A DNA stretch of 64,000 bases, taken from a virus. Position numbers and translations under genes: made by a program. Below are positions 12,601 to 53,355 of this stretch, piece after piece (position 1 is the stretch's first letter; every line of letters begins with the position of its first letter). The notes under the pieces were generated by a model. The model ran no database searches. It had not been told where the DNA came from and saw only the letters and a list, made by a program, of their open reading frames with translations. The DNA lies in the IMG/VR virus record IMGVR_UViG_3300045988_122718, positions 64,001-128,000 of that record. One strand, given 5' to 3'.

Positions 12601-14569
12601 GGTCGGAGACTATGTTATAAAAATAGAAAGCTATACAACTATTTTGAAACAACTGTACGAGTTGATAGATAAACAGTTAACAGAAGAAAACTCTGTACCA
12701 GATGATTATGAAATTATAGAAATAAAACTAAACCCAGATAACTTCAATGAGGTCAATAAGTTTTTACCAGAAGCTGACATAGAGCATCTTGGAAATGTTT
12801 ATAAGATTACTAACCAAGAGAAAATCGTTGATGAAAGTGGTGGCGTTTCATATAACGACATAGCTTATAAGTATTATGTCTGTGAAATGAAGATGTCAAC
12901 ATATGTAGATGATGATGGAAAAGAGCAGCAACAGTATAAGTATGTTTGGAATGAAAGAGAATTAGTGTTTGGTGGAGATGGTATAAACTCTCTTAAGGAA
13001 AGAATAGATATTTATTCCGCCATTAATGATATACAAATTGCTGCAGAATGGGATCAAAAGCCACAAGGTAGCGATGAATATCAAAGCTATTCTGATAACT
13101 TGAAGAAGCTACAAGATACCAAAAAGGAATTAGAAGAGAAACAAAAAGCAGTTGATAGTATAGAAGAAGAAATAAAAAGTGCTCAAGACGAAATCAGAAT
13201 GATATCAGAAGATATCAATGTTGATAAAAACTTTTCGCCAGAGAGCTTAGATAGGCTTTCTTTATTCTTACGTGAAGATGAATATTCTGATGATTGTTTC
13301 TGTACTACAGACATTGATACGGATTTAGACATAATCAACACACAGAAAGAGCTATTAGTTGCTGGATATAAAAAGTTAAAGACCATTTCAAGACCAACAT
13401 TATCATTCTCTGCTTCTATGAAAAACATTTATGCAATCCCAGAGTTTGAGCCAATATTACATCAATTCAAACTTGGAAATTTTATAAAAGTTAGAATCAG
13501 AAAAGATTTTATTAAGAAGGCAAGATTACTTGAGGTGCAATTAGATTTTGACGACTTAAGCAATTTCTCATGTACATTTGGAGATTTACTGTCTGCAAAA
13601 GACCAAGGAGATATTCACGCTGATTTGTTGGCGCAAGCAATTAATGCCGGAAAAGCAGTGGCAAGTGGCTCTGCAAACTGGCAAAAGGGCTATAATGTTG
13701 CTACTGCGATTGATGAAAAAATTAAGCAAGGATTGATTGATGCAACGACTTCTATAAAATCAAATTCTGCCGGTCAGGACATTTCATGGGACAATTATGG
13801 TATTCATTTACGCAAAGTTGTTGATGGTATTCTAGACAAACATGAAGGATGGATTACGAACAACAAGTTCTTATATTCTGATGATAATTTCCAAACTACA
13901 AAATCTGTATTCGGTAATTATACTATTGAAGGAGAAACATATTGGGGCATTCTTGCTGGATGCGTTAGTGCTGGTCTTATTGAAGGTAGCCATATTATCG
14001 GTGGAGAAATATGTATTGGCTTACAAGAAGATGGAACTTATGCGTTTAAAGTAGACAAAGACGGAACGGTAACGATGAATAAAGGTGACGCAGCAGAAAA
14101 GTTATCCTACTTTAGTTTTGATGGAGATAATGGTTTGATTGTTGGTGAAAATAAAGAGGGAGATTATTTCTCAAGAGTTTCTGCGCAAAAAATTGAATTT
14201 TGTCGCAAAGCAAGAATTATTGTTGTAACATCTGAACCAACACATAAATACGATAATTATGATTATGTTCTATATCAACACACAGAAGGTTCGACTACTT
14301 ATTTTGATTATTATAAGAATCCAGACTTCGTATATAAAAATGAAGAACCATTATATGAGGCACGTGCCATTGGAGAAAATTTTGAAGACCCTGAAATAAA
14401 ATTCGGCATCCCAATTACTTATTTTGCAAATAATACAGCATATATGAAACAGGCAGAAATAGAAGGAAGTTTAAAGGTTGGTACAGAAGAACAAACCCCA
14501 TCTATTTCTTTGAAGAATTTCAGAATACAAATAGAGAGCAATGGTAGTTTGTCTATTGTAGCAACATAA
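9677..14569 (+). CDS. tail-associated protein Tal (minor structural protein / tail endopeptidase family N-terminus) with an internal domain array
   Basis: Position after Dit. The N-terminal ~380 aa resemble prophage tail endopeptidase / minor structural protein N-terminal regions. A long repeat-containing extension follows. GGAGG RBS. Confidence 0.75.
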   Translation: MILPKDLLSESYRKPKVILCQTNKDKICQLDATGLTGTFKFNSYSEISFNVASIYHDLITGEQKRTPYYDYIEGLRLVYLEGFGYFQLQNPELYSDGIQEYKQINAYSLEYTLSQKYLETFIINKGDVGDTIGSIDGAVLYNPLDVDHSLLHLVLQKAYGWTIGHVDDELASQSRSFEVDRESIYDFIMNDMCDTFKCYVEFDTINNTVNVYSENEIERFIGDGETDTFKLSNGISETTTVTINGHVVTQYKYNEDTKELILTPAPAQGDIVEVTDEFKHKYDTDIIIAFENLSNEMKVNYSSDDIKTVLTVKGADDLDIRNVNFGLPTIMNLDYYCTPEWMGEKLYNEYLSYVDKQDKYMSGFYSRDIAGSTEETFNVETTKESFVVGNTQEFIAKGSQESFNANGDVSYFNIDKAQVTYQINSVVEKLDVKAESMVFVQPKLLSEKHTVELDEKTFILKNKIIVPKDTKVYVNDEEINENQYEYDANKKELTIVDDSLQLSTGDIIKIETPENSIQTNFIFDNPDNKNIVVKVNGEETEKYETNTTGLKIADDAILNYGDTVIVELIDNKFNLSSTKDRIISVTVNDRDVEKYIRNGNVLSITDNSLRSGNIVSVKSVGTENTIDLSQHKDKVVVSVSVGENEIDSYTLENYRLTVNYEVSPGDEIVVKLVNNKFAVPQVKDRILSAEIDSNNIQDYSFSFINDVLTINELKALYNGTQVILKSVDEYFILNKEGRATSVFIDGIEIGDSEFDYDDNKLTITSNVITPESNIIVEFVGTSFHLTISGRISSVSINGKKIENYSFDESKRMLIIDDESLISNCKVSVEIINNMFYLSNVQENVSLYVYINGIETKNYELKNNELTIKDTLKIKDTVSAEYTDNHFQISGDIGLRHVVEKESSDGSSESIQEGTGYEYDDTTKILTINIPLKNGEKIVVKNIDTTNALRVVQSNAKEGEILLEDVTPTLKSYEPKVGDYVIKIESYTTILKQLYELIDKQLTEENSVPDDYEIIEIKLNPDNFNEVNKFLPEADIEHLGNVYKITNQEKIVDESGGVSYNDIAYKYYVCEMKMSTYVDDDGKEQQQYKYVWNERELVFGGDGINSLKERIDIYSAINDIQIAAEWDQKPQGSDEYQSYSDNLKKLQDTKKELEEKQKAVDSIEEEIKSAQDEIRMISEDINVDKNFSPESLDRLSLFLREDEYSDDCFCTTDIDTDLDIINTQKELLVAGYKKLKTISRPTLSFSASMKNIYAIPEFEPILHQFKLGNFIKVRIRKDFIKKARLLEVQLDFDDLSNFSCTFGDLLSAKDQGDIHADLLAQAINAGKAVASGSANWQKGYNVATAIDEKIKQGLIDATTSIKSNSAGQDISWDNYGIHLRKVVDGILDKHEGWITNNKFLYSDDNFQTTKSVFGNYTIEGETYWGILAGCVSAGLIEGSHIIGGEICIGLQEDGTYAFKVDKDGTVTMNKGDAAEKLSYFSFDGDNGLIVGENKEGDYFSRVSAQKIEFCRKARIIVVTSEPTHKYDNYDYVLYQHTEGSTTYFDYYKNPDFVYKNEEPLYEARAIGENFEDPEIKFGIPITYFANNTAYMKQAEIEGSLKVGTEEQTPSISLKNFRIQIESNGSLSIVAT
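11060..12520 (+). repeat. about 8-9 tandem copies of a 52-61 aa domain inside Tal
   Basis: The recurring pattern is (V/I)-N/D-G-x-E/x-x-x-x-Y-x(5-10)-L-x-I-x(6-10)-G-D/N-x-I/V-x-V-x. Examples are VKVNGEETEKYE..., VTVNDRDVEKYI..., VSVGENEIDSYT..., SINGKKIENYSF... and YINGIETKNYEL.... An isolated copy lies at about 10395-10500. Confidence 0.8.
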
Positions 14570-39066: not shown

Positions 39067-39843
39067 TTATAGTTCATCGTCTTCTTCTGCAAGCTTCTTC
39101 TTAATAGCCTTAATTGCGGCTTGTACGTCTGGACGAGTAATATTTTCCTCCATCCAAATTACATAATCGTCACCAGAACGATATAGGTCGATTAACTTCT
39201 CGCCCTTATGCTTACCAAATGTCAGCACGTATTCCTCTGGCTTAGATTCTACTCTTGGAGCTTCAATGTTCTCGAAATCCATCATAATAGTTTTACGAGA
39301 TGCAAGGTAGTCTGCAAGATGTACTAGCTCTTGATATGTGTCTTCTGGTTTCGGCAAACATTCTCCGGTTTTTCTATCCACATTCCATTGGCCCATATGC
39401 GATTCAATACAATGAGCAATTAGTTCAATTTCATCGTGATTTAGATACTTGCCATCATAACTACGAATAACCGTTGCCATTTGTAGAGGGTGGTCGAATT
39501 TAGTATACTTACTTCTTTCATAATCTGATTGGGACCCACTCTTACGGCCATCATGAATCAGTCCTGCCACACGTAGCAAGTCTCTTTCTCTACTAGGAAT
39601 TATTTTGTTGTATTGTTCAAGTTCAAGAAAGAAATTTAGGAATCTTACAACTGCAATCTGATGACGCATCAATCCAAGTTCTCCAAGTGAATAGGCCGGA
39701 TGGTACTTTCCAGTAGACGATGCTCCAACATGCCAGATATATTCTGGAAGATTGTCTAGCAACACAATTGCAAAATCTTTAATATCATTATTTTCAAATG
39801 TATTTAGTACTGGTTCTACTATATTTAGTCTTTCAGGCGTCAT
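39067..39843 (-). CDS. HD-domain phosphohydrolase with C-terminal DUF3820/ExoX-C-like module
   Basis: H-x(n)-HDGRK motif. The C-terminus is VLTFGKHKGEKLIDLYRSGDDYVIWMEEN. Confidence 0.6.
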   Translation of the reverse strand: MTPERLNIVEPVLNTFENNDIKDFAIVLLDNLPEYIWHVGASSTGKYHPAYSLGELGLMRHQIAVVRFLNFFLELEQYNKIIPSRERDLLRVAGLIHDGRKSGSQSDYERSKYTKFDHPLQMATVIRSYDGKYLNHDEIELIAHCIESHMGQWNVDRKTGECLPKPEDTYQELVHLADYLASRKTIMMDFENIEAPRVESKPEEYVLTFGKHKGEKLIDLYRSGDDYVIWMEENITRPDVQAAIKAIKKKLAEEDDEL

Positions 39844-40272: not shown

Positions 40273-40680
40273 TTAATCAAATGTCTCTTGAATATATCCA
40301 TTATCCGTTGTATAGTTAATCTTTTTAATGCCAAGGCTCTTGATAAGTTTTTGACATCCAGGACATGGTTTACTCAATGCTTTTGTGCCATTTTTCCACT
40401 CTCTATATATGTAAATCTGTACATCTTTCCAGTTGATGTCTTTGCGATTCATAAGTGGTAAAAGCGCAGACGTTTCTGCGTGAAGAAAATGATTCGTATC
40501 TCCGTCAAAACGTTCTTTATTGAGTTCTTTCTGAAGTGGGTGTGTTTTCATAATATTACAACCGCTTGATATAATACGGTGGCCACACACTATGACACAT
40601 CCTATATGATGCTTTTCAAAATCACTCAATTCAGAAACTGCTCTGGCTGCATTAAAATATGTTCTATCCTTTTTCGTCAT
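40273..40680 (-). CDS. dCMP deaminase
   Basis: HAETSAL (H-A-E) and PCPGCQKLI (PC-x-x-C) zinc motifs. Confidence 0.85.
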   Translation of the reverse strand: MTKKDRTYFNAARAVSELSDFEKHHIGCVIVCGHRIISSGCNIMKTHPLQKELNKERFDGDTNHFLHAETSALLPLMNRKDINWKDVQIYIYREWKNGTKALSKPCPGCQKLIKSLGIKKINYTTDNGYIQETFD

Positions 40681-44199: not shown

Positions 44200-44202
44200 T
44201 TA

Positions 44203-44278
44203 TGGAGCACGTGACGAGGCTCGAACTCGCAACAGCCAGATTGGAAATCTGGAACTCTACCAATTGAGCTACACGTGC
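44203..44278 (-). tRNA. tRNA-Gly(UCC)
   Basis: Cloverleaf GCACGTG..CCAGA-TTTCCAA-TCTGG..GCGAG-TTCGAGC-CTCGT-CACGTGC-T-CCA. The CCA is encoded. Confidence 0.9.
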
Positions 44279-44284
44279 ATATAA

Positions 44285-44356
44285 TATTCCACACAGGAGT
44301 CGAACCTGTCTCTCTACGTTCGCGGCGTAGTGTTCTATCCGATGAACTAGTGGAAT
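44285..44356 (-). tRNA. tRNA-Arg(GCG)-like with C33
   Basis: ATTCCAC..CTACG-CCGCGAA-CGTAG..ACAGG-TTCGACT-CCTGT-GTGGAAT. The anticodon loop has C at position 33. No CCA is encoded. Confidence 0.6.
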
Positions 44357-44364
44357 TTGACTTA

Positions 44365-45120
44365 CTATATATCAAATTCTTTGTGTCTACCACAATCTCT
44401 TGATAACCACGTTATATTTCTTTTACCATTACCTTTGTTTGCTCCTCTATATGTAGGAGTTAATGAATGACAATTAGGGCATAACAATGTTAAATTTTCT
44501 TCTTTATTATTTGTTGCATCTCCATCAATATGTTCTATTTCAAGTGGCAAAGTTCCAGTATATGGATTAATTTCACTCCACCCACATTTTGCACATTTAT
44601 TTTCGTATTTATCAAAAATATATTTTTTAATAGACGAAGATAGGTCTATCCATTTATCACCTGTTAATCCATCCCATTCTCCATCTTTCCATTGTTTTAT
44701 TTTTTGTTTATATCTATATTCATTAAAACATTTTGCAGAACAATATTTATTTTTCTTAGGTATTTCTTTATTACAATTAATACAATAATGATGTCCTACT
44801 TTCTTTTTTCTATGTTGGTTGCTATATGTCACAGAGCATGAACGGGAACAAAACTCAATTCTTTTAAAATCACTATTTTTTTGATTATATTTTTGCGAGA
44901 TTTCTTTCCCACAATTTTTACAAAACTTAATATCTAATTCTTCTTTAATGTGCGGACATTTTTCAATCATACAATATTTTATTGTAGATAATTGCTTTTC
45001 AAATGTTTTATGACACCCATCACATTCTACAATATATATAGTATGATTGTCTTTTGTTCTTTTGTCAGATATCCCTATTATTGTATAACATCCATATTTT
45101 TCTCCTATGTGTTTATCCAT
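44365..45120 (-). CDS. HNH endonuclease (multi-Zn-ribbon N-terminus)
   Basis: The C-terminus LEIEHIDGDATNNKEENLTLLCPNCHS is an HNH core. It is embedded in the tRNA array. Confidence 0.8.
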   Translation of the reverse strand: MDKHIGEKYGCYTIIGISDKRTKDNHTIYIVECDGCHKTFEKQLSTIKYCMIEKCPHIKEELDIKFCKNCGKEISQKYNQKNSDFKRIEFCSRSCSVTYSNQHRKKKVGHHYCINCNKEIPKKNKYCSAKCFNEYRYKQKIKQWKDGEWDGLTGDKWIDLSSSIKKYIFDKYENKCAKCGWSEINPYTGTLPLEIEHIDGDATNNKEENLTLLCPNCHSLTPTYRGANKGNGKRNITWLSRDCGRHKEFDI

Positions 45121-45152
45121 TATGTATCACCACGATGTCTATTATTTTAAGA

Positions 45153-45284
45153 TGGTGGGCCTGGAGGAACTCGAATCCTCGACCAATAGCTTAATGGTGG
45201 GAATGGCAGGTGCTGCCCCTACTTGCAAAAGCTTTTCTGAATACACCCCCAAGGCTACTGCTCTACCTACTGAGCTACAGACCC
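45153..45284 (-). tRNA. tRNA-Lys(UUU) interrupted by a 56-nt tRNA-like minihelix
   Basis: GGGTCTG-TA-GCTC..GAGC-A-GTAGC-CTT[56 nt]TTAA-GCTAT-TGGTC-GAGGA-TTCGAGT-TCCTC-CAGGCCC-A-CCA. The length is 76 nt after removal, and the body resembles bacterial tRNA-Lys. Confidence 0.8.
45195..45250 (-). ncRNA. nested tRNA-like minihelix (intron candidate) in tRNA-Lys
   Basis: GGGGGTG-(21 nt)-GTAGG-GGCAGCA-CCTGC-CATTCCC-A-CCA: a 7-bp acceptor-like helix (2 G-U), a 5-bp stem, a 7-nt GGCAGNA loop, a discriminator and CCA. Confidence 0.7.
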
Positions 45285-45287
45285 ATA

Positions 45288-45363
45288 TGGTCTGAGTGGT
45301 GAGTCCCGCCCTCACGGCCTCGTGGTCCCAGGCCACGCGCTCTGCTAACTGAGCTACACCCAG
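45288..45363 (-). tRNA. free-standing tRNA-like gene: Pro(UGG)-type anticodon loop with C33 and non-canonical T-loop GGCGGGA
   Basis: CTGGGTG-TA-GCTC-AGTTAGCA-GAGC-G-CGTGG-CCTGGGA-CCACG-AGGCC-GTGAG-GGCGGGA-CTCAC-CACTCAG-A-CCA. The D-loop lacks GG. Confidence 0.6.
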
Positions 45364-45368
45364 AAATA

Positions 45369-45445
45369 TGGCACCCCGTGTTGGACTCAAACCAACGACA
45401 CATGGCTTAGAAGGCCATTGCTCTGTTCAACTGAGCTAACGGGGC
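45369..45445 (-). tRNA. tRNA-Arg(UCU)
   Basis: GCCCCGT..ATGGC-CTTCTAA-GCCAT..GTTGG-TTTGAGT-CCAAC-ACGGGGT-G-CCA. Confidence 0.85.
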
Positions 45446-45450
45446 ATATA

Positions 45451-45539
45451 TGGCGCGGCGCTGAGGTGTCGATCCCCATTCCTTTCACAGAACCACTAGT
45501 TTTCAAGACTAGGTTGCAAGCCGTTGCAATTAACGCCGC
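45451..45539 (-). tRNA. tRNA-Ser(UGA), class II
   Basis: GCGGCGT..CTAGT-CTTGAAA-ACTAG, a long variable arm, TGGGG-ATCGACA-CCTCA-GCGCCGC-G-CCA. Confidence 0.8.
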
Positions 45540-45649
45540 ATATTTTTGTAATCTCAAACTCCTCCACACAGATTACTGGGCACCCCTTACCTCGAATGCT
45601 AGTTAGTAGCAACAAACGTTTGTGCCGTTTCCACAAATAAAGATACACT

Positions 45650-45844
45650 TTACTGCGTATTAACCTCTGTATATTCAGTACTAGATAAGGTAATCATTCT
45701 TTCGCATCCGTCCTGTGGACAAAAAATATTTGCAACCCCAAGATTATTTATTCCGTCAGACGGATTAAATGCAAATTCACAACCACAATAAGGGCAGATT
45801 GCCTTATAGGTCTTAACTTTGCCTCCCTTGATAATATACTTCAT
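45650..45844 (-). CDS. small Zn-ribbon protein
   Basis: CPYCGC...CPQDGC. ORF with RBS inside the tRNA island. Confidence 0.5.
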   Translation of the reverse strand: MKYIIKGGKVKTYKAICPYCGCEFAFNPSDGINNLGVANIFCPQDGCERMITLSSTEYTEVNTQ

Positions 45845-45855
45845 AGTAACACCTC

Positions 45856-45975
45856 TTAATTAAACTTGCTTAACTGCCGCTTAACCTTACGGATAAGACC
45901 TTCGTTCATAGTCTCGCCTCGTGCCAGAAGCTTTGCTAAACGATTTTCATAATGTTCCTTAGTGCGAAAATTCAT
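45856..45975 (-). CDS. small basic ORF (39 aa)
   Basis: MNFRTKEHYENRLAKLLARGE... with an AGGAGG RBS. Below the ORF-track cutoff. Confidence 0.35.
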   Translation of the reverse strand: MNFRTKEHYENRLAKLLARGETMNEGLIRKVKRQLSKFN

Positions 45976-46001
45976 AATATGTACCTCCTAAAATTTTTGT
46001 A

Positions 46002-46124
46002 TGGCAGGGGTAGCAGGGTTCGAACCTACGATGCGGGAGTCTGGTCAAGGTAGTTGGTACTGCCCCAACTAAATTCACTTGAATACCTTGAAAGTCCCGT
46101 GCCTTACCACTTGGCTATACCCCT
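46002..46124 (-). tRNA. tRNA-Gln(UUG) interrupted by a 49-nt tRNA-like minihelix
   Basis: AGGGGTA-TA-GCC-AAGTGGTAA-GGC-A-CGGGA-CTTT[49 nt]GAC-TCCCG-CATC-GTAGG-TTCGAAC-CCTGC-TACCCCT-G-CCA. The body resembles bacterial tRNA-Gln (GCCAAG.GGUAAGGCA, weak 1-72 pair, G73). Confidence 0.8.
46042..46090 (-). ncRNA. nested tRNA-like minihelix (intron candidate) in tRNA-Gln
   Basis: CAAGGTA-TTCAAGTGAATTTA-GTTGG-GGCAGTA-CCAAC-TACCTTG-A-CCA. Confidence 0.7.
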
Positions 46125-46127
46125 ATA

Positions 46128-46202
46128 TGGTGGATCTGACGTGACTCGAACACGCAACCTCTTCCTTGCAAGGGAAGCTTTCTCCCATTGAAATACAGAC
46201 CC
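46128..46202 (-). tRNA. tRNA-Ala(UGC)
   Basis: GGGTCTG..CTTCC-CTTGCAA-GGAAG..GCGTG-TTCGAGT-CACGT-CAGATCC-A-CCA. G3:U70 is present. Confidence 0.9.
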
Positions 46203-46363
46203 TTATTTTGTGAGGTAACTACACTATGTATACCTAATGTAGCTACTGGCTTTCAAACTCCCCACCTCAAACCATTTTTATCTGTCTCTCCTCTTGGCCA
46301 ACCAGATTTGAGTGATTTGAACGGCGCGCCGTCCTCACATTGATAAAATAGTAAAATCAACAA
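46203..46363 (-). ncRNA. unassigned structured RNA candidate (~135 nt closed by TGTGAGG/CCTCACA)
   Basis: In - sense there is a 7-bp closing helix and the palindrome ACGGCGCGCCGT. Nested helices are TTCAAAT/GTTTGAA and CTCAAAT/GTTTGAG. A 9-bp hairpin is GTAGCTACA/TGTAGTTAC. There is no ORF. It does not fit a tRNA. Confidence 0.35.
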
Positions 46364-46454
46364 TGGCGCGATAGGAAGGCTTCGAACCTTCGCACGGCTT
46401 TCACCGCCTAGCAGATTAGCAATCTACCCTCTTCAACCACTTGAGTACTACCGC
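46364..46454 (-). tRNA. tRNA-Ser(GCU), class II
   Basis: GCGGTAG..GTAGA-TTGCTAA-TCTGC, a long variable arm, GAAGG-TTCGAAG-CCTTC-CTATCGC-G-CCA. Confidence 0.85.
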
Positions 46455-46457
46455 ATA

Positions 46458-46661
46458 TTAATCTAATGTTTTTCCAGTTGCTAATTCAAAAATTAAATTA
46501 TCAACACAAGGAATGTGCATTACCTCTCTCTCATATTGAGTACGATGTTCAATATCATTAATATAGATAGGACAATCTTTACATTCTACATTTTCACAAA
46601 AACGAACAGCTTTTTCTACTACTTTAGAATTCGCAAATTTTATATATTCTTCCCAACGCAT
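46458..46661 (-). CDS. hypothetical Cys-containing protein
   Basis: ORF with a GGAGG RBS (ATG at 46661) directly downstream of a pseudoknot motif. Confidence 0.5.
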   Translation of the reverse strand: MRWEEYIKFANSKVVEKAVRFCENVECKDCPIYINDIEHRTQYEREVMHIPCVDNLIFELATGKTLD

Positions 46662-46678
46662 AAAATCCTCCATAAAAC

Positions 46679-46709
46679 GAGCAGTTTATACAGTGATACT
46701 CAGCACTAT
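46679..46709 (-). ncRNA. H-type pseudoknot motif, copy 1
   Basis: In - sense: ATAGTG-CT-GAGTA-T-CACTGT-ATAAAC-TGCTC. Both stems pair, with G-U pairs valid only in - sense. Confidence 0.55.
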
Positions 46710-46762
46710 CCGTCTGGGTTCCAATATTAGAACCGTCCACAATTGAGTTTTGACCACCATAG

Positions 46763-46837
46763 TGGAGCTGATGGAGAATTTCGAAATCTCGACCTAGTGA
46801 TTACAAATCACTCGCTCTGCCTCTGAGCTACACCAGC
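46763..46837 (-). tRNA. tRNA-Thr(UGU)
   Basis: GCTGGTG..AGTGA-TTTGTAA-TCACT..T-arm GAGAT-TTCGAAA-TTCTC (one mismatch)-CATCAGC-T-CCA. Confidence 0.8.
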
Positions 46838-46891
46838 AGATCTCCTCGTCTTTCCGAGGTGTCAATCACACTTTTACATTAATAATCTTAA

Positions 46892-46920
46892 ATTATTCTT
46901 TAATAGGAAGATGACGTCAA
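46892..46920 (-). promoter_or_regulatory. candidate sigma-A promoter inside the tRNA island
   Basis: TTGACG (46915-46920), 17 nt spacer, AATAAT (46892-46897). It is enclosed by the inverted repeat AATCACAC/GTGTGATT. Confidence 0.4.
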
Positions 46921-46943
46921 TCTGTGTGATTACCTTTTATGTG

Positions 46944-47012
46944 AGGTCTTAATTGGAATCGAACCAACACCTGCCCTACCATAGGGCCGATCTACCATTG
47001 AACTATAAGACC
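46944..47012 (-). tRNA. aberrant tRNA-like gene (anticodon arm GCCCT-ATGGT-AGGGC, 5-nt loop); identity undetermined
   Basis: The acceptor (GGTCTTA/TAAGACC), D-arm and T-arm (GTTGG-TTCGATT-CCAAT) are canonical. The anticodon loop is 2 nt short. Confidence 0.45.
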
Positions 47013-47015
47013 TAT

Positions 47016-47092
47016 GGTGACGCTACCGGGGATCGAACCCGGACACTCCACGGTGAAAGCGTGGTAACTCTACCAATTCGTCCATAGCGCCA
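47016..47092 (-). tRNA. tRNA-Glu(UUC)
   Basis: GGCGCTA..CCACG-CTTTCAC-CGTGG..CCGGG-TTCGATC-CCCGG-TAGCGTC-A-CCA. Confidence 0.85.
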
Positions 47093-47099
47093 TATCTTT

Positions 47100-47130
47100 G
47101 GACAGTTTATACAGTGATGTCCAGCACTGT
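47100..47130 (-). ncRNA. H-type pseudoknot motif, copy 2
   Basis: In - sense: ACAGTG-CT-GGACA-T-CACTGT-ATAAAC-TGTCC. It ends 8 nt before the tRNA-Glu 5' end. Confidence 0.6.
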
Positions 47131-47142
47131 CACTTTTGGGAG

Positions 47143-47227
47143 TGGTAGCGGTGGTGGGCTACGATCCCACACGTCATAAGACATTGGTTTTTGAGACCAA
47201 CCTGTCTACCTGTTCCAGCACACCGCC
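47143..47227 (-). tRNA. tRNA-Leu(CAA), class II
   Basis: GGCGGTG..TTGGT-CTCAAAA-ACCAA, a long variable arm, GTGGG-ATCGTAG-CCCAC-CACCGCT-A-CCA. Confidence 0.8.
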
Positions 47228-47434
47228 ATATTAAGCACAACCTACACTGAGCTAGCCTCGCTCACACTTGCTTTCCCGAACACGTCCCACCCTCGGTTAT
47301 GCTTTGATATTGTTTATCCTATTTTCACAATAACATATGCCTCGTTCTCTTCTTGTTACTGTGGGTCAGTAACTTAGTAGCTTTTCTCTTGTGGATAGCA
47401 CTTATCAATACACCGAGAACCCCAATAGGCGGCA
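47228..47434 (-). ncRNA. unassigned structured non-coding block (207 nt)
   Basis: No ORF. Long-range pairs are GCCT...AGGC and GTTCTC...GAGAAC. Hairpins are GTTACTG-ACCCA-CAGTAAC and TGAGC-GAGGCTA-GCTCA. A D-arm-like TAGCTCAGTGTAGG lies at the 3' end. Confidence 0.3.
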
Positions 47435-47511
47435 TGGTTGCGTGAGGTTAGATTTGAACTAACGATCTTCAGCTTATGGGGCTGACGAGATGACCACTTC
47501 TCTACTCCGCA
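47435..47511 (-). tRNA. tRNA-Met/Ile2(CAU) with C33 and a bulged acceptor stem
   Basis: TGCGGAG-TA-GAGA-AGTGGTCA-TCTC-G-TCAGC-CCCATAA-GCTGA-AGATC-GTTAG-TTCAAAT-CTAAC-CTC(A)CGCA-A-CCA. Confidence 0.6.
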
Positions 47512-47515
47512 GTAT

Positions 47516-47546
47516 CTAGCAGACTATAATGCCGTCTGCTATGGCA
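47516..47546 (-). ncRNA. spacer pseudoknot between tRNA-Ile and tRNA-Met
   Basis: In - sense: ATGCC-A-TAGCAGAC-GGCAT-TATA-GTCTGCTA. It has two interleaved perfect stems. Confidence 0.45.
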
Positions 47547-47566
47547 TCAGAAAGAGGTGTTGCATG

Positions 47567-47719
47567 TGGTCCCCTACCGGTGGATTGAACACCGAACCTC
47601 CCGATTATTGGCCTCCTCAGTAAGTCCTGCCCTTACATCTCTAAATCCTGCTGTTTAGTAGTTCTACTATTAAACTATGAGGAGAAGTCGGGTGCTCTAG
47701 CCAGTTGAGCTAGCAGGGG
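47567..47719 (-). tRNA. tRNA-Ile(UAU) interrupted by a 76-nt tRNA-like element
   Basis: CCCCTGC-TA-GCTC..GAGC-A-CCCGA-CTT[76 nt]ATAA-TCGGG-AGGTT-CGGTG-TTCAATC-CACCG-GTAGGGG-A-CCA. The length is 77 nt after removal. Confidence 0.75.
47609..47684 (-). ncRNA. nested full-length tRNA-like element (intron candidate) in tRNA-Ile
   Basis: CTCCTCA-TA-GTT-TAATAGTAG-AAC-TA-CTAAA-CAGCAGGA-TTTAG-AGAT-GTAAG-GGCAGGA-CTTAC-TGAGGAG-G-CCA. It is cloverleaf-sized, with an 8-nt anticodon-like loop and a GGCAGGA T-loop. Confidence 0.65.
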
Positions 47720-48133
47720 ATATATAATCCGGCTTTTACGGTACGACCAGTAAGATGGACGCGCTTGAATTTCACAATTGCCTAGCGTTTCAGGTACTTT
47801 TTAGGAGTTTGGATGTAATACCTTATCCATTCACGCATAGTCCATTAGTACCATGGGCTATAGGACTCACTCCAAGTGGCCGGATTCAACTCCCCTGTAA
47901 ATTCAGGTCTTCCTATCCCCTACCCTTGAAGGATGTTTACCATACTTTTATACCGCTGGCACACATCAGGCGGCTGTGGTAATGATAGCAAGCGGAGCCG
48001 TGCATGACTCCATTTCATAGTGTTTCGTCAATTGCCTTCAGCTCATCCAAGTAATATCAACAGTTAGCAAATTCTGTCGAGAGCTTATTCTCATCGGTAA
48101 TCACTTATGAAATTTGCACTACTCACTATCATC
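47720..48133 (-). ncRNA. large unassigned structured non-coding block (414 nt)
   Basis: It is visibly GC-richer than the flanks, has no credible ORF or RBS, and lies between tRNA-Asn and tRNA-Ile. Its 3' ~55 nt are repeated at 48291-48345. Confidence 0.35.
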
Positions 48134-48210
48134 TGGCGGGAGTAGAAGGACTTGAACCTACGACATCTTGCTTAACAGGCAAGCGCTCTAACCAACTGAG
48201 CTATACTCCC
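48134..48210 (-). tRNA. tRNA-Asn(GUU)
   Basis: GGGAGTA..CTTGC-CTGTTAA-GCAAG..GTAGG-TTCAAGT-CCTTC-TACTCCC-G-CCA. Confidence 0.85.
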
Positions 48211-48213
48211 AAA

Positions 48214-48290
48214 TGGCGACCCATACCAGACTTGAACTGGTGTCCTCTTGCGTGACAGGCAAGCGTGATACTCTTCTTCACCAATGGGCC
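48214..48290 (-). tRNA. tRNA-Asp(GUC)
   Basis: GGCCCAT..CTTGC-CTGTCAC-GCAAG..ACCAG-TTCAAGT-CTGGT-ATGGGTC-G-CCA. Confidence 0.85.
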
Positions 48291-48408
48291 ATATTATGCC
48301 GGCTTTTACGGCATATTTAGCTAGAATATGCTTGAATTCCACAAAAGATGTTTTCTCTATATTAGACACAGTTATTCCCCGGTAGAAAATCTAACACCCG
48401 CTGCGTCT

Positions 48409-48493
48409 TGGTGGGCCAGGTTGGTGTCAATCCAACTACTCTCGAAGGAAACGGATTTACAATCCGCCGCGTTTGCCGATTCGCTACTGACCC
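48409..48493 (-). tRNA. tRNA-Tyr(GUA), class II
   Basis: GGGTCAG..GCGGA-TTGTAAA-TCCGT, a long variable arm, GTTGG-ATTGACA-CCAAC-CTGGCCC-A-CCA. Confidence 0.85.
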
Positions 48494-48550
48494 ATATAAC
48501 TATACTTTAGTATTTTGTTTTAATGTTTGAGAATTACTTGCCAAGGTCAA

Positions 48551-48683
48551 TGGTGCGGGTAGCGAGACTCGAACTCGCACGGATATTTCACCGAGGGATT
48601 TTTGGTGGATATTGTAGGTACTGCCCCTACCAAAGCACTTGCTATACCCAAGTCCCTTATGTCTGCCATTCCATCATACCCGC
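48551..48683 (-). tRNA. tRNA-Leu(UAA), class II, interrupted by a 47-nt tRNA-like minihelix
   Basis: GCGGGTA..A-AGGGA-CTT[47 nt]AAAA-TCCCT-CGGTGAAATATCCGT-GCGAG-TTCGAGT-CTCGC-TACCCGC-A-CCA. The length is 86 nt after removal. AAGGGA.UUAAAAUCCCUCGG matches bacterial tRNA-Leu(UAA). Confidence 0.8.
48603..48649 (-). ncRNA. nested tRNA-like minihelix (intron candidate) in tRNA-Leu
   Basis: GGGTATA-GCAAGTGCTTTG-GTAGG-GGCAGTA-CCTAC-AATATCC-A-CCA. Confidence 0.7.
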
Positions 48684-48691
48684 ATATCACA

Positions 48692-48721
48692 GGGCAGCTT
48701 TAAGGTGATGCCCAGCACCAT
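48692..48721 (-). ncRNA. H-type pseudoknot motif, copy 3
   Basis: In - sense: ATGGTG-CT-GGGCA-T-CACCTT-AAAGC-TGCCC. It ends 8 nt before the tRNA-Leu(UAA) 5' end and lies just after the stop of the TROVE-like gene. Confidence 0.55.
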
Positions 48722-48731
48722 ACTTAACTCC

Positions 48732-50285
48732 TTAAGAGTTCTTCAATGCGGCTTCCACCGCATCATATCTATCACTCATAAGCGTCTCAACTAGACACTC
48801 ATAAGGATCGGGTTTACCACTCATAACCATCTTGCAAACATTAGTGGAGAATCCGCTAACAAGAGCAACACCAAGGTCATTCTCCTTTACATGAATAGTT
48901 CCAGTGCGAGAATTTACATTCCAGAAGACTAGTCTAGGCATCTTATACCCAGCATACTCGAAACGCTTTTTGATCACATTAAAAAGTCTTGCATTAGGTC
49001 TATTAATACCATATCTAGCGGAACCATCACATGTTGCACAAGAGTCAAACTCCATGTCTGAAATAATGAGTACATTCTTAGGCATATCCTCTTGCTTCAT
49101 ACGACCATTTACCGCAGTAGTAAGAATCAAATCAAACACCTTTTCAATGTTTGTATTCGAACACTCGTCATGACCATACGCAACACATAACTTATCTCTC
49201 AGAGAATCGCACTGACTAAAATCAACCAACTGAGGTCTGCTAGAGAAAGTAATATATTTATCTTTAAAGTCTCCAGAAGAATGTTCTGCAAAGTAAATTG
49301 CAAGTGCATTTGCAACTTCAAGTGCAGTAACACGGCTACTTTCACCAACGTTACAACACATAGAAGCAGAACCATCTGCAACTACAATGGTGTTTCCACA
49401 CTCATTTACTGTATCAGGCAAAGCCCTCCAAAGAGATTCAAGAGTTGCATCATACTTGTTGACATAATTATTCCATCCAATTGTGTTAGAATACTTATGT
49501 ACAATGTCGTGAGGGAACAAAGTTCTAGCATTAATCTTAGTTTCACCATTTTCAAGCTTACTTAGATACTCTCTGCGACGCTCCTTATCATTACGAAGGA
49601 AAGCTCCGTTATAAATGAGATTTGCACGAGAAGGAACCGTTTCGTACTTAATGTCTCCCCATTTCTTTGCAGACATCTTACTTTCTACAATGTCAATGTA
49701 AGAACGCAGAGAAGAAAGAATCTTACGATACTTACGCTCTGTCATTCCAAGATTCTTGCAAATGTATCTTGCATCCATCTTAGTTTTTGCAGAAGAAGCA
49801 TTCACAGAAGGAAGCCACTTTGCAAGAAGAGATACGGGCTTATTATCAGCCATATTTGCAATGTCATCGGTGAGCTGCTTTTTGATGATGTCAAGAATAA
49901 CACCATCTACATCTGTTCCAAACAGACACCATAGGTCATCATAACGACCATACTCACTCACTAGAGGAGCAAGATGCTTAACAATGTCAACGTCATCCTT
50001 TACCATATTCTTAAGAATCACTCTGAACAAATGTCTCTCACCAAGACCACCATGAACATCTCTGGCGAAGAACAGCCAACGTAGAGCCATCATTTTATCT
50101 TCAAAATAAGCCTTAGTAAACTTATTATAGATATTCTCCTCACTCATACCACGCATAGAAGAAACTGCAAAGTTTAGGTCAACCAGTTCCTTACCAGAGG
50201 TACGATACCCAAGAGCGCCATTCTCAGTTACTGAATAGTTGAAATCCTCGTTCAGAGTATTCTTTACTGCATTCATAAAAGACAT
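48732..50285 (-). CDS. TROVE/DUF2828-like + vWA domain protein (Ro60-related candidate)
   Basis: The N-terminus VTENGALGYRTSGKELVDLNF...RWLFFARDVHGGLGER resembles DUF2828/TROVE. The C-terminal half has the vWA MIDAS motif VVADGSASM (D-x-S-x-S). A GGAGG RBS precedes the ATG at 50285. The size is Ro60-like. Confidence 0.6.
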   Translation of the reverse strand: MSFMNAVKNTLNEDFNYSVTENGALGYRTSGKELVDLNFAVSSMRGMSEENIYNKFTKAYFEDKMMALRWLFFARDVHGGLGERHLFRVILKNMVKDDVDIVKHLAPLVSEYGRYDDLWCLFGTDVDGVILDIIKKQLTDDIANMADNKPVSLLAKWLPSVNASSAKTKMDARYICKNLGMTERKYRKILSSLRSYIDIVESKMSAKKWGDIKYETVPSRANLIYNGAFLRNDKERRREYLSKLENGETKINARTLFPHDIVHKYSNTIGWNNYVNKYDATLESLWRALPDTVNECGNTIVVADGSASMCCNVGESSRVTALEVANALAIYFAEHSSGDFKDKYITFSSRPQLVDFSQCDSLRDKLCVAYGHDECSNTNIEKVFDLILTTAVNGRMKQEDMPKNVLIISDMEFDSCATCDGSARYGINRPNARLFNVIKKRFEYAGYKMPRLVFWNVNSRTGTIHVKENDLGVALVSGFSTNVCKMVMSGKPDPYECLVETLMSDRYDAVEAALKNS

Positions 50286-50530
50286 TTTCTTTCCTCCATT
50301 TTTTTGATTTATTTCTAAATCCCAAGACACATTATTATGTACAATCTCCACATTAAAAATTTGCTGTTAGTGTCTTTGGAGTTTATTCAACGAGACGCCA
50401 AAATAAAACCATTAGTAAAAATATCATTTTCATCTTTTTAAATTACTGTAAGCGTCTCTATGTAAGGCAAGGCACCATCAATACAAATCCATATCATATT
50501 ATGTAAAGTTGCTGTTAGTGCCTTTTTAAA

Positions 50531-50648
50531 GTCTCCTGACAGGACTTGAACCTGCGACCTCTGGTTTAACAGACCAATTAGAAACTTGCTATTTAAGGCT
50601 TTTACAAGTCTCGTTATTAAGCGCTCTATCCGACTGAGCTACAGGAGA
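50531..50648 (-). tRNA. tRNA-Asn(GUU) copy with a 44-nt insertion between the D-arm and anticodon stem
   Basis: TCTCCTG-TA-GCTC-AGTCGGATA-GAGC-G-[44 nt]-TTGGT-CTGTTAA-ACCAG-AGGTC-GCAGG-TTCAAGT-CCTGT-CAGGAGA-C. No CCA is encoded. Confidence 0.55.
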
Positions 50649-50657
50649 CATATTTAT

Positions 50658-51311: not shown

Positions 51312-51340
51312 TATTATAGCACATTAATTTTGTTTTGTCA
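51312..51340 (-). promoter_or_regulatory. sigma-A promoter (tandem, upstream of the previous one)
   Basis: TTGACA (51335-51340, overlapping the TGA of the PurA-like gene), 17 nt spacer, TGCTATAAT (-10 at 51312-51317). Confidence 0.6.
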
Positions 51341-52486
51341 AGTATCTTTTTTAAATAATTTTCTAGTTTCTTCATAAGACAGGTACTTAATATTAATGCC
51401 CGTCAAATTCAGCAGTTTTTCATTTTTAAACTCGTTAACATGAGTTACTGCCAGAGACACCTCATAGGCAATATCCCCAATATCTTCCTTAATTCTTTGC
51501 ATAAGCTCACCAACATCAAGATGCCCATACCGAATAGACCCCTGATACTGGTTTGTAATATTGGTCTTGTCATCAATGTTAATGTTAATCTCCGACTTGT
51601 CACATTCACATTCAAAATCACCAGCACCATGCTTCGTCATATATGTTCTAGTAACATAGCACACTTCAACGTTTGCATTAGGTAAATACTTTTCAATGAT
51701 TATATGAGGATTTGCAATGCCAGTATTGCTAGGAGTCGTATTATCATAATACTGAACATGACGCTGATCCAACAGCAATCCTTGCCCATTTTCAAATATA
51801 ACGTTATCAAACTTTTGCAAAATCCTACTATAATCAAATACTACATGAGAATGTATAAACTGCACATCGTCAATAAAGTTATAAATCAAATTGTCGGATG
51901 CCAAAATATCTTCCCATTCCTGCAAAACTTCAGGACTAGCCTTTAGCAGCCTCTTAGACGTATATTCATCCCTGACACGCTTAAGAAATGCGACCTGCTC
52001 GTCCTTAGTCATATTATAAAACTGCTGGAAAGACGGACTTGTAGTATTCCTATATCTAAGAACAGTTTCCCAAATACCCATACCACAAGAGCCATACCGA
52101 TTTTTGCCACGACTATCCTCAAGGATTTGATTTGTAATCATATCATATGGAGTAGACCATCTGCAATTCCAATGACTATAAACACGAGGTGCATAGCCTA
52201 ATGCCTTCAGTTCCTCGTACTCTTTTCTAAAAGTCATAGGATTTAGAATATACTCTTCCCCAAAATAAGTATCTGCTCCCGCAAAGGTTCCTGAACCAAA
52301 ATGGTGGAACACATGTCTAATGTCATCTGGAGTAACTACAGTATGTCCTCTTTGTGCGCCGCCATTGCATAGAGCAACGATACAAGATTCATTCCGCTTA
52401 CTTGCTTCGGCACAAAAGTAATCGGTCATCAGACCTTTTCCCTCGTCGCCAAAATTGCTGCCAATTACTACCTTAACATTAGACAT
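51338..52486 (-). CDS. adenylosuccinate-synthetase-like (PurA family) enzyme, divergent
   Basis: P-loop VVIGSNFGDEGKGLMTDYF, GGAQRGHTV and YGSCGMGIWET parallel the PurA motifs (GDEGKG, N-A-GHT, TTG-GIGP). The ATG at 52486 follows AAAGGA. Confidence 0.65.
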   Translation of the reverse strand: MSNVKVVIGSNFGDEGKGLMTDYFCAEASKRNESCIVALCNGGAQRGHTVVTPDDIRHVFHHFGSGTFAGADTYFGEEYILNPMTFRKEYEELKALGYAPRVYSHWNCRWSTPYDMITNQILEDSRGKNRYGSCGMGIWETVLRYRNTTSPSFQQFYNMTKDEQVAFLKRVRDEYTSKRLLKASPEVLQEWEDILASDNLIYNFIDDVQFIHSHVVFDYSRILQKFDNVIFENGQGLLLDQRHVQYYDNTTPSNTGIANPHIIIEKYLPNANVEVCYVTRTYMTKHGAGDFECECDKSEININIDDKTNITNQYQGSIRYGHLDVGELMQRIKEDIGDIAYEVSLAVTHVNEFKNEKLLNLTGINIKYLSYEETRKLFKKDT

Positions 52487-52500
52487 GTGTTTATCCTTTC

Positions 52501-53355
52501 TTACCAAGAAATACCTTCACTAGATGTTGCTACATTGCCACCAGAAAACGCATTGGTGACAATATCAATGATGTCGTCTGCAATCTTATCAACAGATGTA
52601 TCCTTCAGATGATTCTCGTCCAGAAGCTGTCCGAAAGTCTTATGAACATCCTCCTGATAACGACCATAACCATGCTTGACATACAGGTGATAGATATCAA
52701 ACTTCTCGGATGCATCAATGTAAAGCTGCGTCGTTTCAATATCATTCTGTAGGTCATCACCAGTCACTGCAGATAGAGCCTTCTTCGGCAGATATGGATT
52801 CATAGGCTCATCACCCATAGTGATAATGACACCCTTCTGTCCACGATTCCAGCAGTCTAGCTTCGTGTGGTTAAGGCCGAAATACCATGCGGCGCTATAA
52901 GACTCATAAGCATTACCTCCGCCGCCGCCCTCAAAATAAATCTTATCAAGCTGTTCTGCGATACGGATATCAGACTCAAACTGGGATGCCTGAATTGGAG
53001 CGCAATCGTAAGCAAGGTCCCCAATGCCCATAACCATAAACTCTACGTCTGCGATATTCTCGTATAGTTTGGTCATTACTACGTTGATCTGCTTTGCAAC
53101 TTCCATAGCCGCCTTGCCCATGCTACCAGTTACATCGAGTGCTAGAATAACAGGCTTGGTATTAGGATGCTCCACAGAATCAACACACTCACGCATTACA
53201 TTCTTGGGATCAAGGTCTGCTACTAGCATTCTAGATCTGAAATTGTCCTGCACATTAGAGGACATTCCAGTGACTACACCGTCCATTGACACGTTGTACC
53301 CCTTGGTAGTCGTATAAGAGGTAAAAGCGCTTCTAGTCCAACTGCCACCGCCCAT
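52501..53355 (-). CDS. von Willebrand factor A (vWA) domain protein
   Basis: The MIDAS motif is LALDVTGSMG (D-x-T/S-x-S), with a beta-alpha pattern typical of vWA. Confidence 0.7.
   Translation of the reverse strand: MGGGSWTRSAFTSYTTTKGYNVSMDGVVTGMSSNVQDNFRSRMLVADLDPKNVMRECVDSVEHPNTKPVILALDVTGSMGKAAMEVAKQINVVMTKLYENIADVEFMVMGIGDLAYDCAPIQASQFESDIRIAEQLDKIYFEGGGGGNAYESYSAAWYFGLNHTKLDCWNRGQKGVIITMGDEPMNPYLPKKALSAVTGDDLQNDIETTQLYIDASEKFDIYHLYVKHGYGRYQEDVHKTFGQLLDENHLKDTSVDKIADDIIDIVTNAFSGGNVATSSEGISW

Follow-up and report, generated by a model that had tools for sequence, protein, structure and literature searches.

What is a tRNA-like RNA doing inside the anticodon of a phage lysine tRNA gene, and can such a gene still yield a working tRNA? 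The question arises from a 64,000-nt stretch of viral DNA (positions 64,001 to 128,000 of IMG/VR record IMGVR_UViG_3300045988_122718, the whole of which we refer to as the window), in which a phage tRNA cluster at about 44200-48700 includes, on the minus strand, a tRNA-Lys(UUU) gene interrupted by a nested 56-nt minihelix. An earlier note on this DNA had described the gene, with coordinates and a minus-strand sequence that are exact to the nucleotide, and its reading is correct yet understated: absent from it were the presence of four nested genes in the window (Lys UUU, Gln UUG, Ile UAU, Leu UAA), their wide spread in viruses, the existence of full-size inserts and the T-loop, which is of the transfer-messenger RNA (tmRNA) type. 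Our analysis indicates that the insert is very probably an intervening sequence which has to be removed precisely to give a working tRNA-Lys(UUU), and that, judged from sequence comparison, it most likely belongs to a class of tRNA-like phage introns that has not been described before and is linked to a phage RNA-repair ligase. In the literature that we searched, tRNA-like inserts within the tRNA genes of phages are not described, although the coverage of subscription journals was partial and a prior description is possible.

The interrupted tRNA-Lys gene and three similar genes

The 5′ exon of the gene reads GGGTCTGTAGCTCAGTAGGTAGAGCAGTAGCCTT (45284-45251; GGGTCTG..GTAGCCTT), the insert GGGGGTG-TATTCAGAAAAGCTTTTGCAA-GTAGG-GGCAGCA-CCTGC-CATTCCC-A-CCA (45250-45195, 56 nt) and the 3′ exon TTAAGCTATTGGTCGAGGATTCGAGTTCCTCCAGGCCCACCA (45194-45153; TTAAGCTAT..CAGGCCCACCA), with the exon-exon junction sequence GCAGTAGCCTT|TTAAGCTATTGG and window-specific arms GGGTCTGTAGCTCAGTAGGTAGA (5′) and GGTCGAGGATTCGAGTTCCTCCAGGCCCACCA (3′). 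The Rfam tRNA model matches 45156-45284 above its gathering score of 29 (Table 1) and places a 59-nt insertion within the anticodon loop; when 45195-45250 is deleted in silico, the remaining 76 nt fold as a cloverleaf with the 7-nt loop CUUUUAA, including U33, so that by score and by loop the gene belongs to RF00005. ARAGORN calls the deleted form tRNA-Lys(ttt), with the junction behind the first anticodon base (U34|U35). These results bear out the insert behind U34, the loop and the 76-nt length on removal that had been proposed, as well as the lysine identity of the body, which is matched by a near-identical uninterrupted tRNA-Lys in a related viral locus (L216; loci are given by L numbers), and we agree that a naive reading of the anticodon gives Pro rather than Lys. 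Plain ARAGORN on the window called none of the four nested genes, that for Lys included; its intron mode detected the Lys gene with the intron misplaced and the anticodon misnamed (Thr/tgt), and the insert boundaries were re-derived independently of this placement. The anatomy of the minihelix is also as first described, a 7-bp acceptor-like stem (GGGGGUG/CAUUCCC), followed by a mini D-like segment, a 5-bp T-like stem (GUAGG/CCUGC) with the loop GGCAGCA, a discriminator A and CCA.

In-silico deletion of the inserts in three further genes of the window recovered tRNA-Gln(UUG), tRNA-Leu(UAA) and tRNA-Ile(UAU), the last of these genes having been seen by intron-mode ARAGORN. All four inserts follow a common plan, with a 7-bp closing stem, a short middle and a 5-bp stem with the loop GGCAG(Y/G)A, and in each the 3′ part consists of 7 nt pairing back to the insert start, a discriminator base and CCA. 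The module GGGGCAGYACC-N10-ACCA occurs three times in the window against 0.00 expected, and the full architecture (7-bp stem, 5-bp stem with a GGC[AG]GNA loop, NCCA) five times against none in 50 shuffles. The fifth of these copies stands free, 3 nt upstream of the Lys gene, and resembles tRNA-Pro(UGG); it has C33, the T-loop GGCGGGA, an encoded CCA and no GG in its D-loop, and ARAGORN did not call it; in the relative L219 its position holds a canonical tRNA-Pro, and a second, normal tRNA-Pro(UGG) is present in the window at 46943-47012.

Recurrence, structure and selection

Nested genes of this kind recur widely in viral DNA. A first broad motif scan of public viral contigs gave, among the matches listed, mostly chance occurrences and tmRNA genes, with some nested in tRNAs; a tighter pattern was found in 85 viral stretches, where deletion of a 46-66-nt element restores a canonical tRNA at 40 of 89 sites, the rest being mostly full-length 73-78-nt tRNAs whose own T-loop is GGCAGYA. 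Cellular genomes (596 Gb) held only 27 motif matches, of which one was nested, a few were full-length noncanonical tRNAs and the rest were due to chance, and the nested case, which is identical to a viral locus, belongs to a 147-kb contig that had been binned with a metagenome-assembled genome (MAG) of a gut Prevotella. Near and distant BLAST searches of GenBank phages found no cultured phage with a comparable gene. A motif-independent survey of all fetched loci, combining ARAGORN intron mode with our own boundary resolution, resolved 77 nested elements in viral contigs (46 distinct), almost all in U34 tRNAs: Leu(UAA) (33), Ile(UAU) (18), Gln(UUG) (12), Lys(UUU) (5), Glu(UUC), Thr(UGU) and Asn(GUU) (2 each), and Gly(UCC), Pro(UGG) and a suppressor-like CUA tRNA (1 each). 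The inserts form a mini class of 35-56 nt and a full-size class of 66-77 nt, and their T-loops are mostly GGCAGNA, with GGUCAUCA and ordinary UUCRA also present. Junction positions vary in the host loop (32|33, 34|35, 35|36 and 36|37), but the boundaries are constant relative to the insert, at the first base of the 7-bp stem and after the 4-nt tail, which implies that recognition resides in the nested tRNA-like domain.

Full-size inserts with canonical T-loops also exist, in the Ile(UAU) genes of L193, L219 and L173 and the Glu(UUC) gene of L013 and L188. One canonical-T-loop insert (GGGAATA..TTATA GTCTAGC TATAA..) has an anticodon-like loop that reads CUA, and by its sequence might be an amber-suppressor-like tRNA nested inside another tRNA.

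The structure of the inserts is conserved. When boundaries were set solely by the rule that the element ends in CCA and restores a tRNA, at least six of the seven closing pairs formed in 53 of 65 distinct genes (all seven in 41), compared with 0, 0 and 5 in slid controls. In a fixed-register alignment of 38 distinct elements, pre-selected for at least six of seven closing pairs, the 12-bp acceptor and T-stem stack was 98.5% paired, as against 34-45% with the 3′ strand slid; double compensatory changes were found in 11 of the 12 stack pairs, and the observed covariation was reached by none of 500 shuffles. Alignment of whole inserts with MAFFT and RNAalifold had recovered the T-stem alone, with the ragged 5′ strand misaligned, and was replaced by the fixed-register alignment. 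Beyond the pairing itself, the acceptor stems are unconstrained in sequence, with 4-6 pair types at each position, which is what a processing signal, rather than an aminoacylation identity, would be expected to show. With a coaxial acceptor and T-stem stack of ~12 bp and a single-stranded 3′ NCCA, the inserts have the features of a minimal RNase P substrate, and the NCCA tail is present in at least 53 distinct elements.

GGCAGNA is also the T-loop of the Rfam alphaproteobacterial tmRNA consensus, in which the T-arm reads CCCGG-GGCgGUA-CCCGG-CGcCUCC-ACCA (RF01849), the corresponding stretch of the Lys insert being GUAGG GGCAGCA CCUGC CAUUCCC ACCA, and free-standing copies of the motif in viral contigs are the acceptor piece of a permuted alphaproteobacterial-type tmRNA (Rfam, 116 bits). 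The D-loop GG is missing in 27 of 32 full-length tRNAs with a GGCAGYA T-loop but present in 722 of 831 ordinary tRNAs from the same loci, and all 21 distinct mini inserts have AG without GG between the closing stem and the T-arm. The insert is a tRNA top half with an alternative elbow, completed by its small D-like hairpin, and not a bare hairpin. This elbow (a GGCAGNA T-loop with a GG-less D-loop) is common to nested elements, free-standing phage tRNAs and alphaproteobacterial tmRNA, and GGCAGNA is a bona fide though unusual T-loop of a tRNA-like domain handled by the tRNA machinery. Full-length tRNAs with the T-loop GGCAGYA and an encoded CCA carry the anticodons CAU, GAU, UAC, GAC, GAA and others; they are mostly viral and rare in cellular genomes (Table 1).

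Several observations bear on whether the interrupted genes function as tRNAs. The predicted Lys exon-exon junction was found uninterrupted in 17 viral contigs. The uninterrupted tRNA-Lys of L216 differs from the spliced form of the window at 8 of 76 positions, mostly by paired changes, and by this comparison reads as a near-identical empty site for the Lys insert; L219 and L220, with a 98% identical ligase, had been considered as empty sites, but carry a different Lys paralog, and L216 was used instead. Ten diverse Leu(UAA) genes, spliced in silico, fold into a common cloverleaf, 17 of whose 23 pairs show compensatory changes, which implies that the interrupted genes are under selection as tRNAs. 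Removal of the insert restores a perfect 7-nt loop and cloverleaf in at least 53 distinct genes. Each of the four interrupted genes is the sole gene found in the window for its anticodon, and the codons that they read make up ~15.5% of its coding sequence. The junction, the empty site, the compensatory changes and the sole decoders speak strongly against pseudogenes and for precise removal, and the feature itself is real, recurrent, structurally conserved and under selection.

A candidate route of removal and its rivals

We propose that the primary transcript would adopt the cloverleaf of the host tRNA, from whose anticodon loop the tRNA-like domain would project. RNase P would treat the nested domain like any pre-tRNA and cut at the first insert nucleotide, leaving ...CUU-3′OH on the 5′ exon, whilst a 3′-end endonuclease measuring the same domain would cut right behind NCCA, leaving 5′-P-UUAA... 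on the 3′ exon; candidates for this second cut are an RNase Z/BN-type enzyme cleaving after CCA, RNase E or a further phage enzyme. The exons would remain base-paired, and the 3′-OH/5′-P nick in the anticodon loop would be sealed by a phage Rnl5-type ligase. We propose the same route for the Gln, Ile and Leu genes of the window. The two insert boundaries coincide with the two ends defined by tRNA maturation, an acceptor/T-arm minihelix with a 3′-RCCA suffices as an RNase P substrate, and some RNase Z/BN enzymes cleave straight after CCA. RNase P, RNase Z/BN and RNase E leave 3′-OH and 5′-P ends, and NgrRnl/Rnl5 ligases seal 3′-OH/5′-PO4 nicks. On balance, we consider it slightly more likely than not that RNase P, a post-CCA endonuclease and a phage ligase together make up the route.

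A ligase of this type is encoded ~7 kb from the tRNA-Lys gene. It has the N-terminal OB domain and C-terminal nucleotidyltransferase domain of its class, with the motif KLDGTS (KxxG), and it matches the Naegleria nick-sealing ligase NgrRnl (PDB 5cot) at E 1.5e-39. Genes for a polynucleotide-kinase-like protein, a metallophosphoesterase and an RlaP-like nucleotidyltransferase are co-located with it at 33833-38636, all four repair genes lying within about 7-11 kb. The earlier note had brought up PrrC and the T4 enzymes Pnk and Rnl as context only. A phage RNA-repair kit of this kind has been described by Iyer and colleagues (PMC7824862), and RlaP in phage tRNA repair by Carruthers and colleagues (PMC12776372). 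At the syntenic site, a ligase-type gene is retained in close relatives that have nested tRNAs, although the families differ, being Rnl5-like in the window, T4 Rnl1-like in L186 and a divergent OB-fold ligase-like protein in L136, and these non-orthologous ligases explain an apparent absence of the ligase from L136 and L186.

A number of points weigh against this route and against parts of the evidence on which it draws. The 3′ cut is its least secure step: to our knowledge no bacterial enzyme is established as cutting exactly after CCA in every host, and in many bacteria CCA inhibits RNase Z and the 3′ end is matured by exonucleases, to which the 3′ exon would be lost. Among the genes of the 64-kb window, none was recognised as RNase P- or RNase Z-like. 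Nor is a CCA end indispensable, as a few nested inserts end in NCAA or in a degenerate tail (Table 1); the Ile insert of L136, the closest relative of the window, ends in ACAA where its window counterpart has GCCA. GGCAGNA departs from the canonical T-loop, and that RNase P recognises it is known indirectly, through tmRNA alone. The folding energy of the Lys insert alone is unremarkable (z = 0.00; tested elements 0.00 to -1.8, not significant), and the insert structure rests on covariation and recurrence, not on thermodynamics. Repair genes were found near 3 of 40 nested and 2 of 35 non-nested tRNA clusters (p = 1), in fetched loci that are too short for this comparison, and 46 of 61 ligase-bearing relatives have no nested tRNA within reach. 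The kinase and phosphoesterase fit 2′,3′-cyclic-phosphate/5′-OH chemistry equally well, and it is from sequence that splicing, the sites of cleavage and the chemistry of the ends are deduced.

The end chemistry leads to the alternative that survives best, although we think it unlikely. Here a dedicated endoribonuclease of phage or host would cut both junctions and leave 2′,3′-cyclic phosphate and 5′-OH ends; the enzyme would be metal-independent, resembling an anticodon nuclease or a splicing endonuclease, and would recognise the nested domain, after which kinase and phosphoesterase would heal the ends and the ligase seal them, as T4 Pnkp and Rnl1 do on PrrC-cut tRNA-Lys. The cassette does hold a kinase-like protein and a metallophosphoesterase, both superfluous for 3′-OH/5′-P ends, L186 has a ligase of the T4 Rnl1 type, many open-reading frames of the window are without an assigned function, and most junctions (34|35, 35|36) lie at what we take to be the sites cut by known anticodon nucleases. 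However, no candidate nuclease was identified, and the boundaries follow the tRNA-like insert, at the positions of tRNA-end maturation (+1 and after NCCA), and not the host loop. Ordinary anti-defence tRNA repair accounts well enough for the kinase and phosphoesterase (PMC7824862).

It is more doubtful still that the inserts are selfish and are not spliced at all, so that a mobile tRNA-like element has inactivated its host genes, leaving pseudogenes or carriers of a nested small RNA. There is good reason to regard the elements as mobile. The 56-nt insert of L168 is identical to that of the window although the tRNA-Lys around it has diverged in acceptor stem, D-arm and T-arm, with only the anticodon arm in common; conversely, L159 has the same tRNA body as the window and an insert that differs at seven positions, some of them compensatory. 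Across 61 ligase-anchored loci, one and the same tRNA species can be intact in one genome and interrupted in another, a polymorphism that is seen among close relatives. These mismatches and the presence/absence pattern imply that the elements recombine or move independently of their host tRNAs. HNH homing endonuclease genes nearby and the degenerate tails of some copies could be read in the same way. However, inactivation sits badly with the loops and cloverleaves restored by removal, with the compensated pairs of the interrupted Leu genes and with the lack of any other gene in the window for these four much-used anticodons, and it is unlikely that four simultaneous pseudogenes would be kept across many genomes. 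The elements are better seen as mobile or recombining units that are tolerated, perhaps exploited, in phages already carrying a kit for anticodon-loop repair.

Two HNH homing-endonuclease-like genes were observed in the window. One, with a zinc ribbon (44365-45120, minus), begins 33 nt downstream of the tRNA-Lys gene and is absent from the other Lys-insert loci examined; the second lies at 48-701 (plus).

A further reading, to which we likewise give little credence, makes the nested RNA the main product: the host tRNA would be a scaffold from which a small tRNA-like RNA ending in CCA is set free, to act for instance as a decoy against tRNA-targeting nucleases, as a tmRNA- or Y-RNA-like partner or as a primer, with re-ligation of the exons secondary or absent. 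In its favour, the GGCAGNA loop is strictly conserved over very different stems, the module resembles the tRNA-like domain of tmRNA, a free-standing paralog stands beside the Lys gene (45288-45363) and many free-standing full-length versions exist elsewhere, and a module of a putative RNA-binding protein with a tRNA-like RNA is encoded nearby. It nevertheless leaves unexplained the perfectly joinable exons under selection as tRNAs; nested elements with ordinary UUCRA T-loops also occur, and the acceptor stems hold no conserved identity element. Finally, it is extremely unlikely that the insert is a ribozyme intron, whether a group I-like element that splices itself or a small nucleolytic type that cleaves itself. 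Bacterial and phage tRNAs do harbour group I introns in their anticodon loops, and the tRNA cluster of the relative L032 includes a twister-P1-like sequence (49 bits, below gathering score), but the inserts are just 35-77 nt long and conserve tRNA-like helices only, and no Rfam intron or ribozyme family matches the Lys insert at E ≤ 1.

The twister-like element of L032 was considered as an excision mechanism and set aside, as it lies outside any nested element. That tRNA cluster holds both a ROOL RNA (299 bits) and the twister-P1-like sequence (49.4 bits, gathering score 67.2, E 4e-10), and no counterpart of either was detected in the window.

Known systems, neighbouring features and significance

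The removal that we propose, by RNase P, a post-CCA endonuclease and a ligase, has partial parallels in known systems. Archaeal and eukaryal tRNA introns are likewise short anticodon-loop inserts, excised by a protein or ribonucleoprotein (RNP) and followed by an RNA ligase, with the tRNA body holding the exons. However, the bulge-helix-bulge (BHB) motif of two 3-nt bulges and a 4-bp helix is not present in the phage gene, where a 7-bp helix opens directly at the 5′ junction and ends 4 nt short of the 3′ junction, the interruption being at positions from 32|33 to 36|37 rather than the canonical 37|38 of BHB introns; moreover, the phage setting is bacterial, with hosts that lack a splicing endonuclease, and the phage insert is itself tRNA-like with an NCCA end. 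Group I introns of bacterial, cyanobacterial and phage tRNAs share the interruption of the anticodon loop and the presence/absence polymorphism, but are self-splicing, exceed 200 nt and possess a P1-P9 core, whereas the phage inserts consist of tRNA-like helices only, and the Lys insert matched no Rfam intron family at E ≤ 1.

The two-piece permuted tmRNA of Alphaproteobacteria is alike in its T-arm (GG GGCAGUA CC, then 7 nt of acceptor strand and ACCA), and the Lys insert has the GGCRGUA-type T-arm, the acceptor strand and the ACCA. Both are tRNA-like domains without an anticodon arm, and in both the precursor is cut internally by tRNA-processing enzymes, presumptively so for the insert. The resemblance does not extend to the whole molecule, the tmRNA_permuted model matching at 13.8 bits (gathering score 47), on the host T-arm, and no tag open-reading frame being present; unlike tmRNA, the insert has no mRNA-like tag, pseudoknots or conserved G3:U70, its acceptor stems are variable and it is nested in a tRNA. 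In the T4 PrrC/Pnkp/Rnl1 system, too, tRNA-Lys(UUU) is broken in the anticodon loop and the phage has a kinase, a phosphoesterase and an RNA ligase able to reseal it, but there a host defence nuclease breaks a mature tRNA and the ligase is Rnl1, whereas here the break would be programmed into the gene by the insert and the ligase is of the Rnl5 type. The mascRNA of MALAT1, mitochondrial tRNA punctuation and synthetic tRNA-guide RNA (gRNA) arrays all use an embedded tRNA-shaped module as a signal for RNase P and RNase Z; their flanks are not re-ligated, whereas the phage flanks are two halves of another tRNA that need rejoining.

From these comparisons we put forward, tentatively and as somewhat short of probable, a “tRNA-in-tRNA” intron class, which the tRNA end-maturation machinery would excise and phage repair ligases would rejoin, and which could have originated through ligase stitching. 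A repair ligase may have stitched a tRNA-like RNA into a nuclease-cut anticodon loop, the product then being copied back to DNA, an idea suggested because the inserts are bounded like mature tRNAs (+1 to CCA) and mostly lie where anticodon nucleases cut U34 tRNAs. With the inserts in place, the supply of tRNAs that decode AAA, CAA, UUA and AUA may now rely on the phage repair kit or be protected by it.

Table 1 Positions of interrupted tRNA genes, related tRNA-like elements and RNA-repair genes in the window and in related loci.
Feature	Locus	Position	Strand	Evidence or remark
Interrupted tRNA-Lys(UUU) gene, 132 nt	window	45153..45284	minus	Rfam RF00005 56.8 bits; ARAGORN Lys(ttt) after in-silico deletion
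5′ exon of tRNA-Lys, tRNA positions 1-34	window	45251..45284	minus	3′ end ...CUU (U34)
Nested 56-nt tRNA-like minihelix in tRNA-Lys	window	45195..45250	minus	
3′ exon of tRNA-Lys, tRNA positions 35-76	window	45153..45194	minus	start UUAA..., end CCA
Interrupted tRNA-Gln(UUG)	window	46002..46124	minus	Rfam 54.2 bits (match 46005-46124)
Gln insert, 49-nt nested minihelix	window	46042-46090	minus	junction 35|36
Interrupted tRNA-Ile(UAU)	window	47567..47719	minus	intron-mode ARAGORN
Ile insert, 76-nt full-size tRNA-like	window	47609-47684	minus	junction 34|35; T-loop GGCAGGA, tail GCCA
Interrupted tRNA-Leu(UAA)	window	48551..48683	minus	Rfam 39.7 bits (match 48554-48683)
Leu insert, 47-nt nested minihelix	window	48603-48649	minus	junction 34|35
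Free-standing tRNA-Pro(UGG)-like gene	window	45288..45363	minus	Rfam 43.8 bits
RNA ligase, Rnl5/NgrRnl-like	window	37473..38636	minus	PF21189 1.3e-25, PF09414 1.2e-16; phrog_968 1.6e-60
RlaP-like nucleotidyltransferase	window	36386..37195	minus	PF10127 E 3.5e-4 (below cut-off); phrog_388 4e-17
P-loop polynucleotide-kinase-like protein	window	35284..36195	minus	PF13671 1e-22; phrog_505 9e-22
Metallophosphoesterase, candidate 3′-end healing enzyme	window	33833..34381	minus	PF12850 1.6e-8; phrog_547 3.5e-35
T4 Rnl1-like ligase, syntenic site	L186	709-1812	minus	
Divergent OB-fold ligase-like protein, syntenic site	L136	1-1362	minus	
Insert with NCAA tail	L136	9942-10091		
Insert with NCAA tail	L254	812-947		
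Insert with NCAA tail	L168	4392-4531		
Insert with degenerate tail	L130	3003-3120		
Full-length tRNAs with GGCAGYA T-loop, viral	L122, L127, L132, L133, L142, L145, L160, L169-L172, L175, L176, L183, others			
Full-length tRNAs with GGCAGYA T-loop, MAG	L281, L283, L285, L293, L303, L305			
ROOL RNA	L032	346-946	minus	Rfam
Twister-P1-like sequence	L032	2786-2837	minus	Rfam

Other features of the window stand apart from the nested genes. A tRNA-like RNA at 50530-50649 (minus; Rfam tRNA 42.3 bits, no CCA; spacer 50352-50530) has ~38-44 extra nt, with the motif ACAGCAA inside, between the D-arm and an Asn-like anticodon arm. RNAs of this type are found in L134, L136, L159, L173, L186, L043, L196 and L257, usually in tandem with a second similar RNA, and always adjoin a DUF2828/DUF7788 protein, encoded in the window at 48732-50351 (minus; phrog_850 ‘RNA-binding protein’, 3.5e-133). 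This protein had no PDB sequence match, and together with its tRNA-like RNA it may be the phage version of a Ro/TROVE-like protein and its Y-RNA-like companion (compare PMC7824862). Gaps of 200-550 nt in the tRNA cluster (45446-46001, 47228-47439 and 47720-48133, minus) held no open-reading frame of ≥80 aa and no Rfam match at E ≤ 1, and may contain further unrecognised RNAs. An adenylosuccinate-synthetase-like gene of the PurZ-type family (51338-52507, minus; phrog_1211 2.2e-62) is a hint that the genome may contain 2-aminoadenine (Z base); genes for an HD-domain protein (39067-39843) and for a dCMP deaminase (40273-40680) lie near it. Two very large open-reading frames, 907-8490 (plus, 2527 aa) and 9677-14569 (plus, 1630 aa), lie upstream of a tail-protein gene.

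The alternative elbow is a second structural finding of this analysis, alongside the nested genes themselves. Standard tRNA finders miss or misname nested genes, so that phage tRNA repertoires and codon-usage arguments are mis-scored, as are the “missing” Lys, Gln, Leu and Ile decoders of viral genomes, and the strong bias to U34 tRNAs, the usual targets of anticodon nucleases, ties the phenomenon to the tRNA arms race between phages and bacteria. If the exons are truly joined, bacteria-infecting viruses would possess a protein- or RNP-dependent tRNA splicing assembled from the parts of end maturation and damage repair, the first enzymatic, non-self-splicing tRNA splicing pathway of the bacterial world; phage RNA ligases would gain a constitutive substrate, and enzymatic tRNA splicing would no longer belong to archaea and eukaryotes only.

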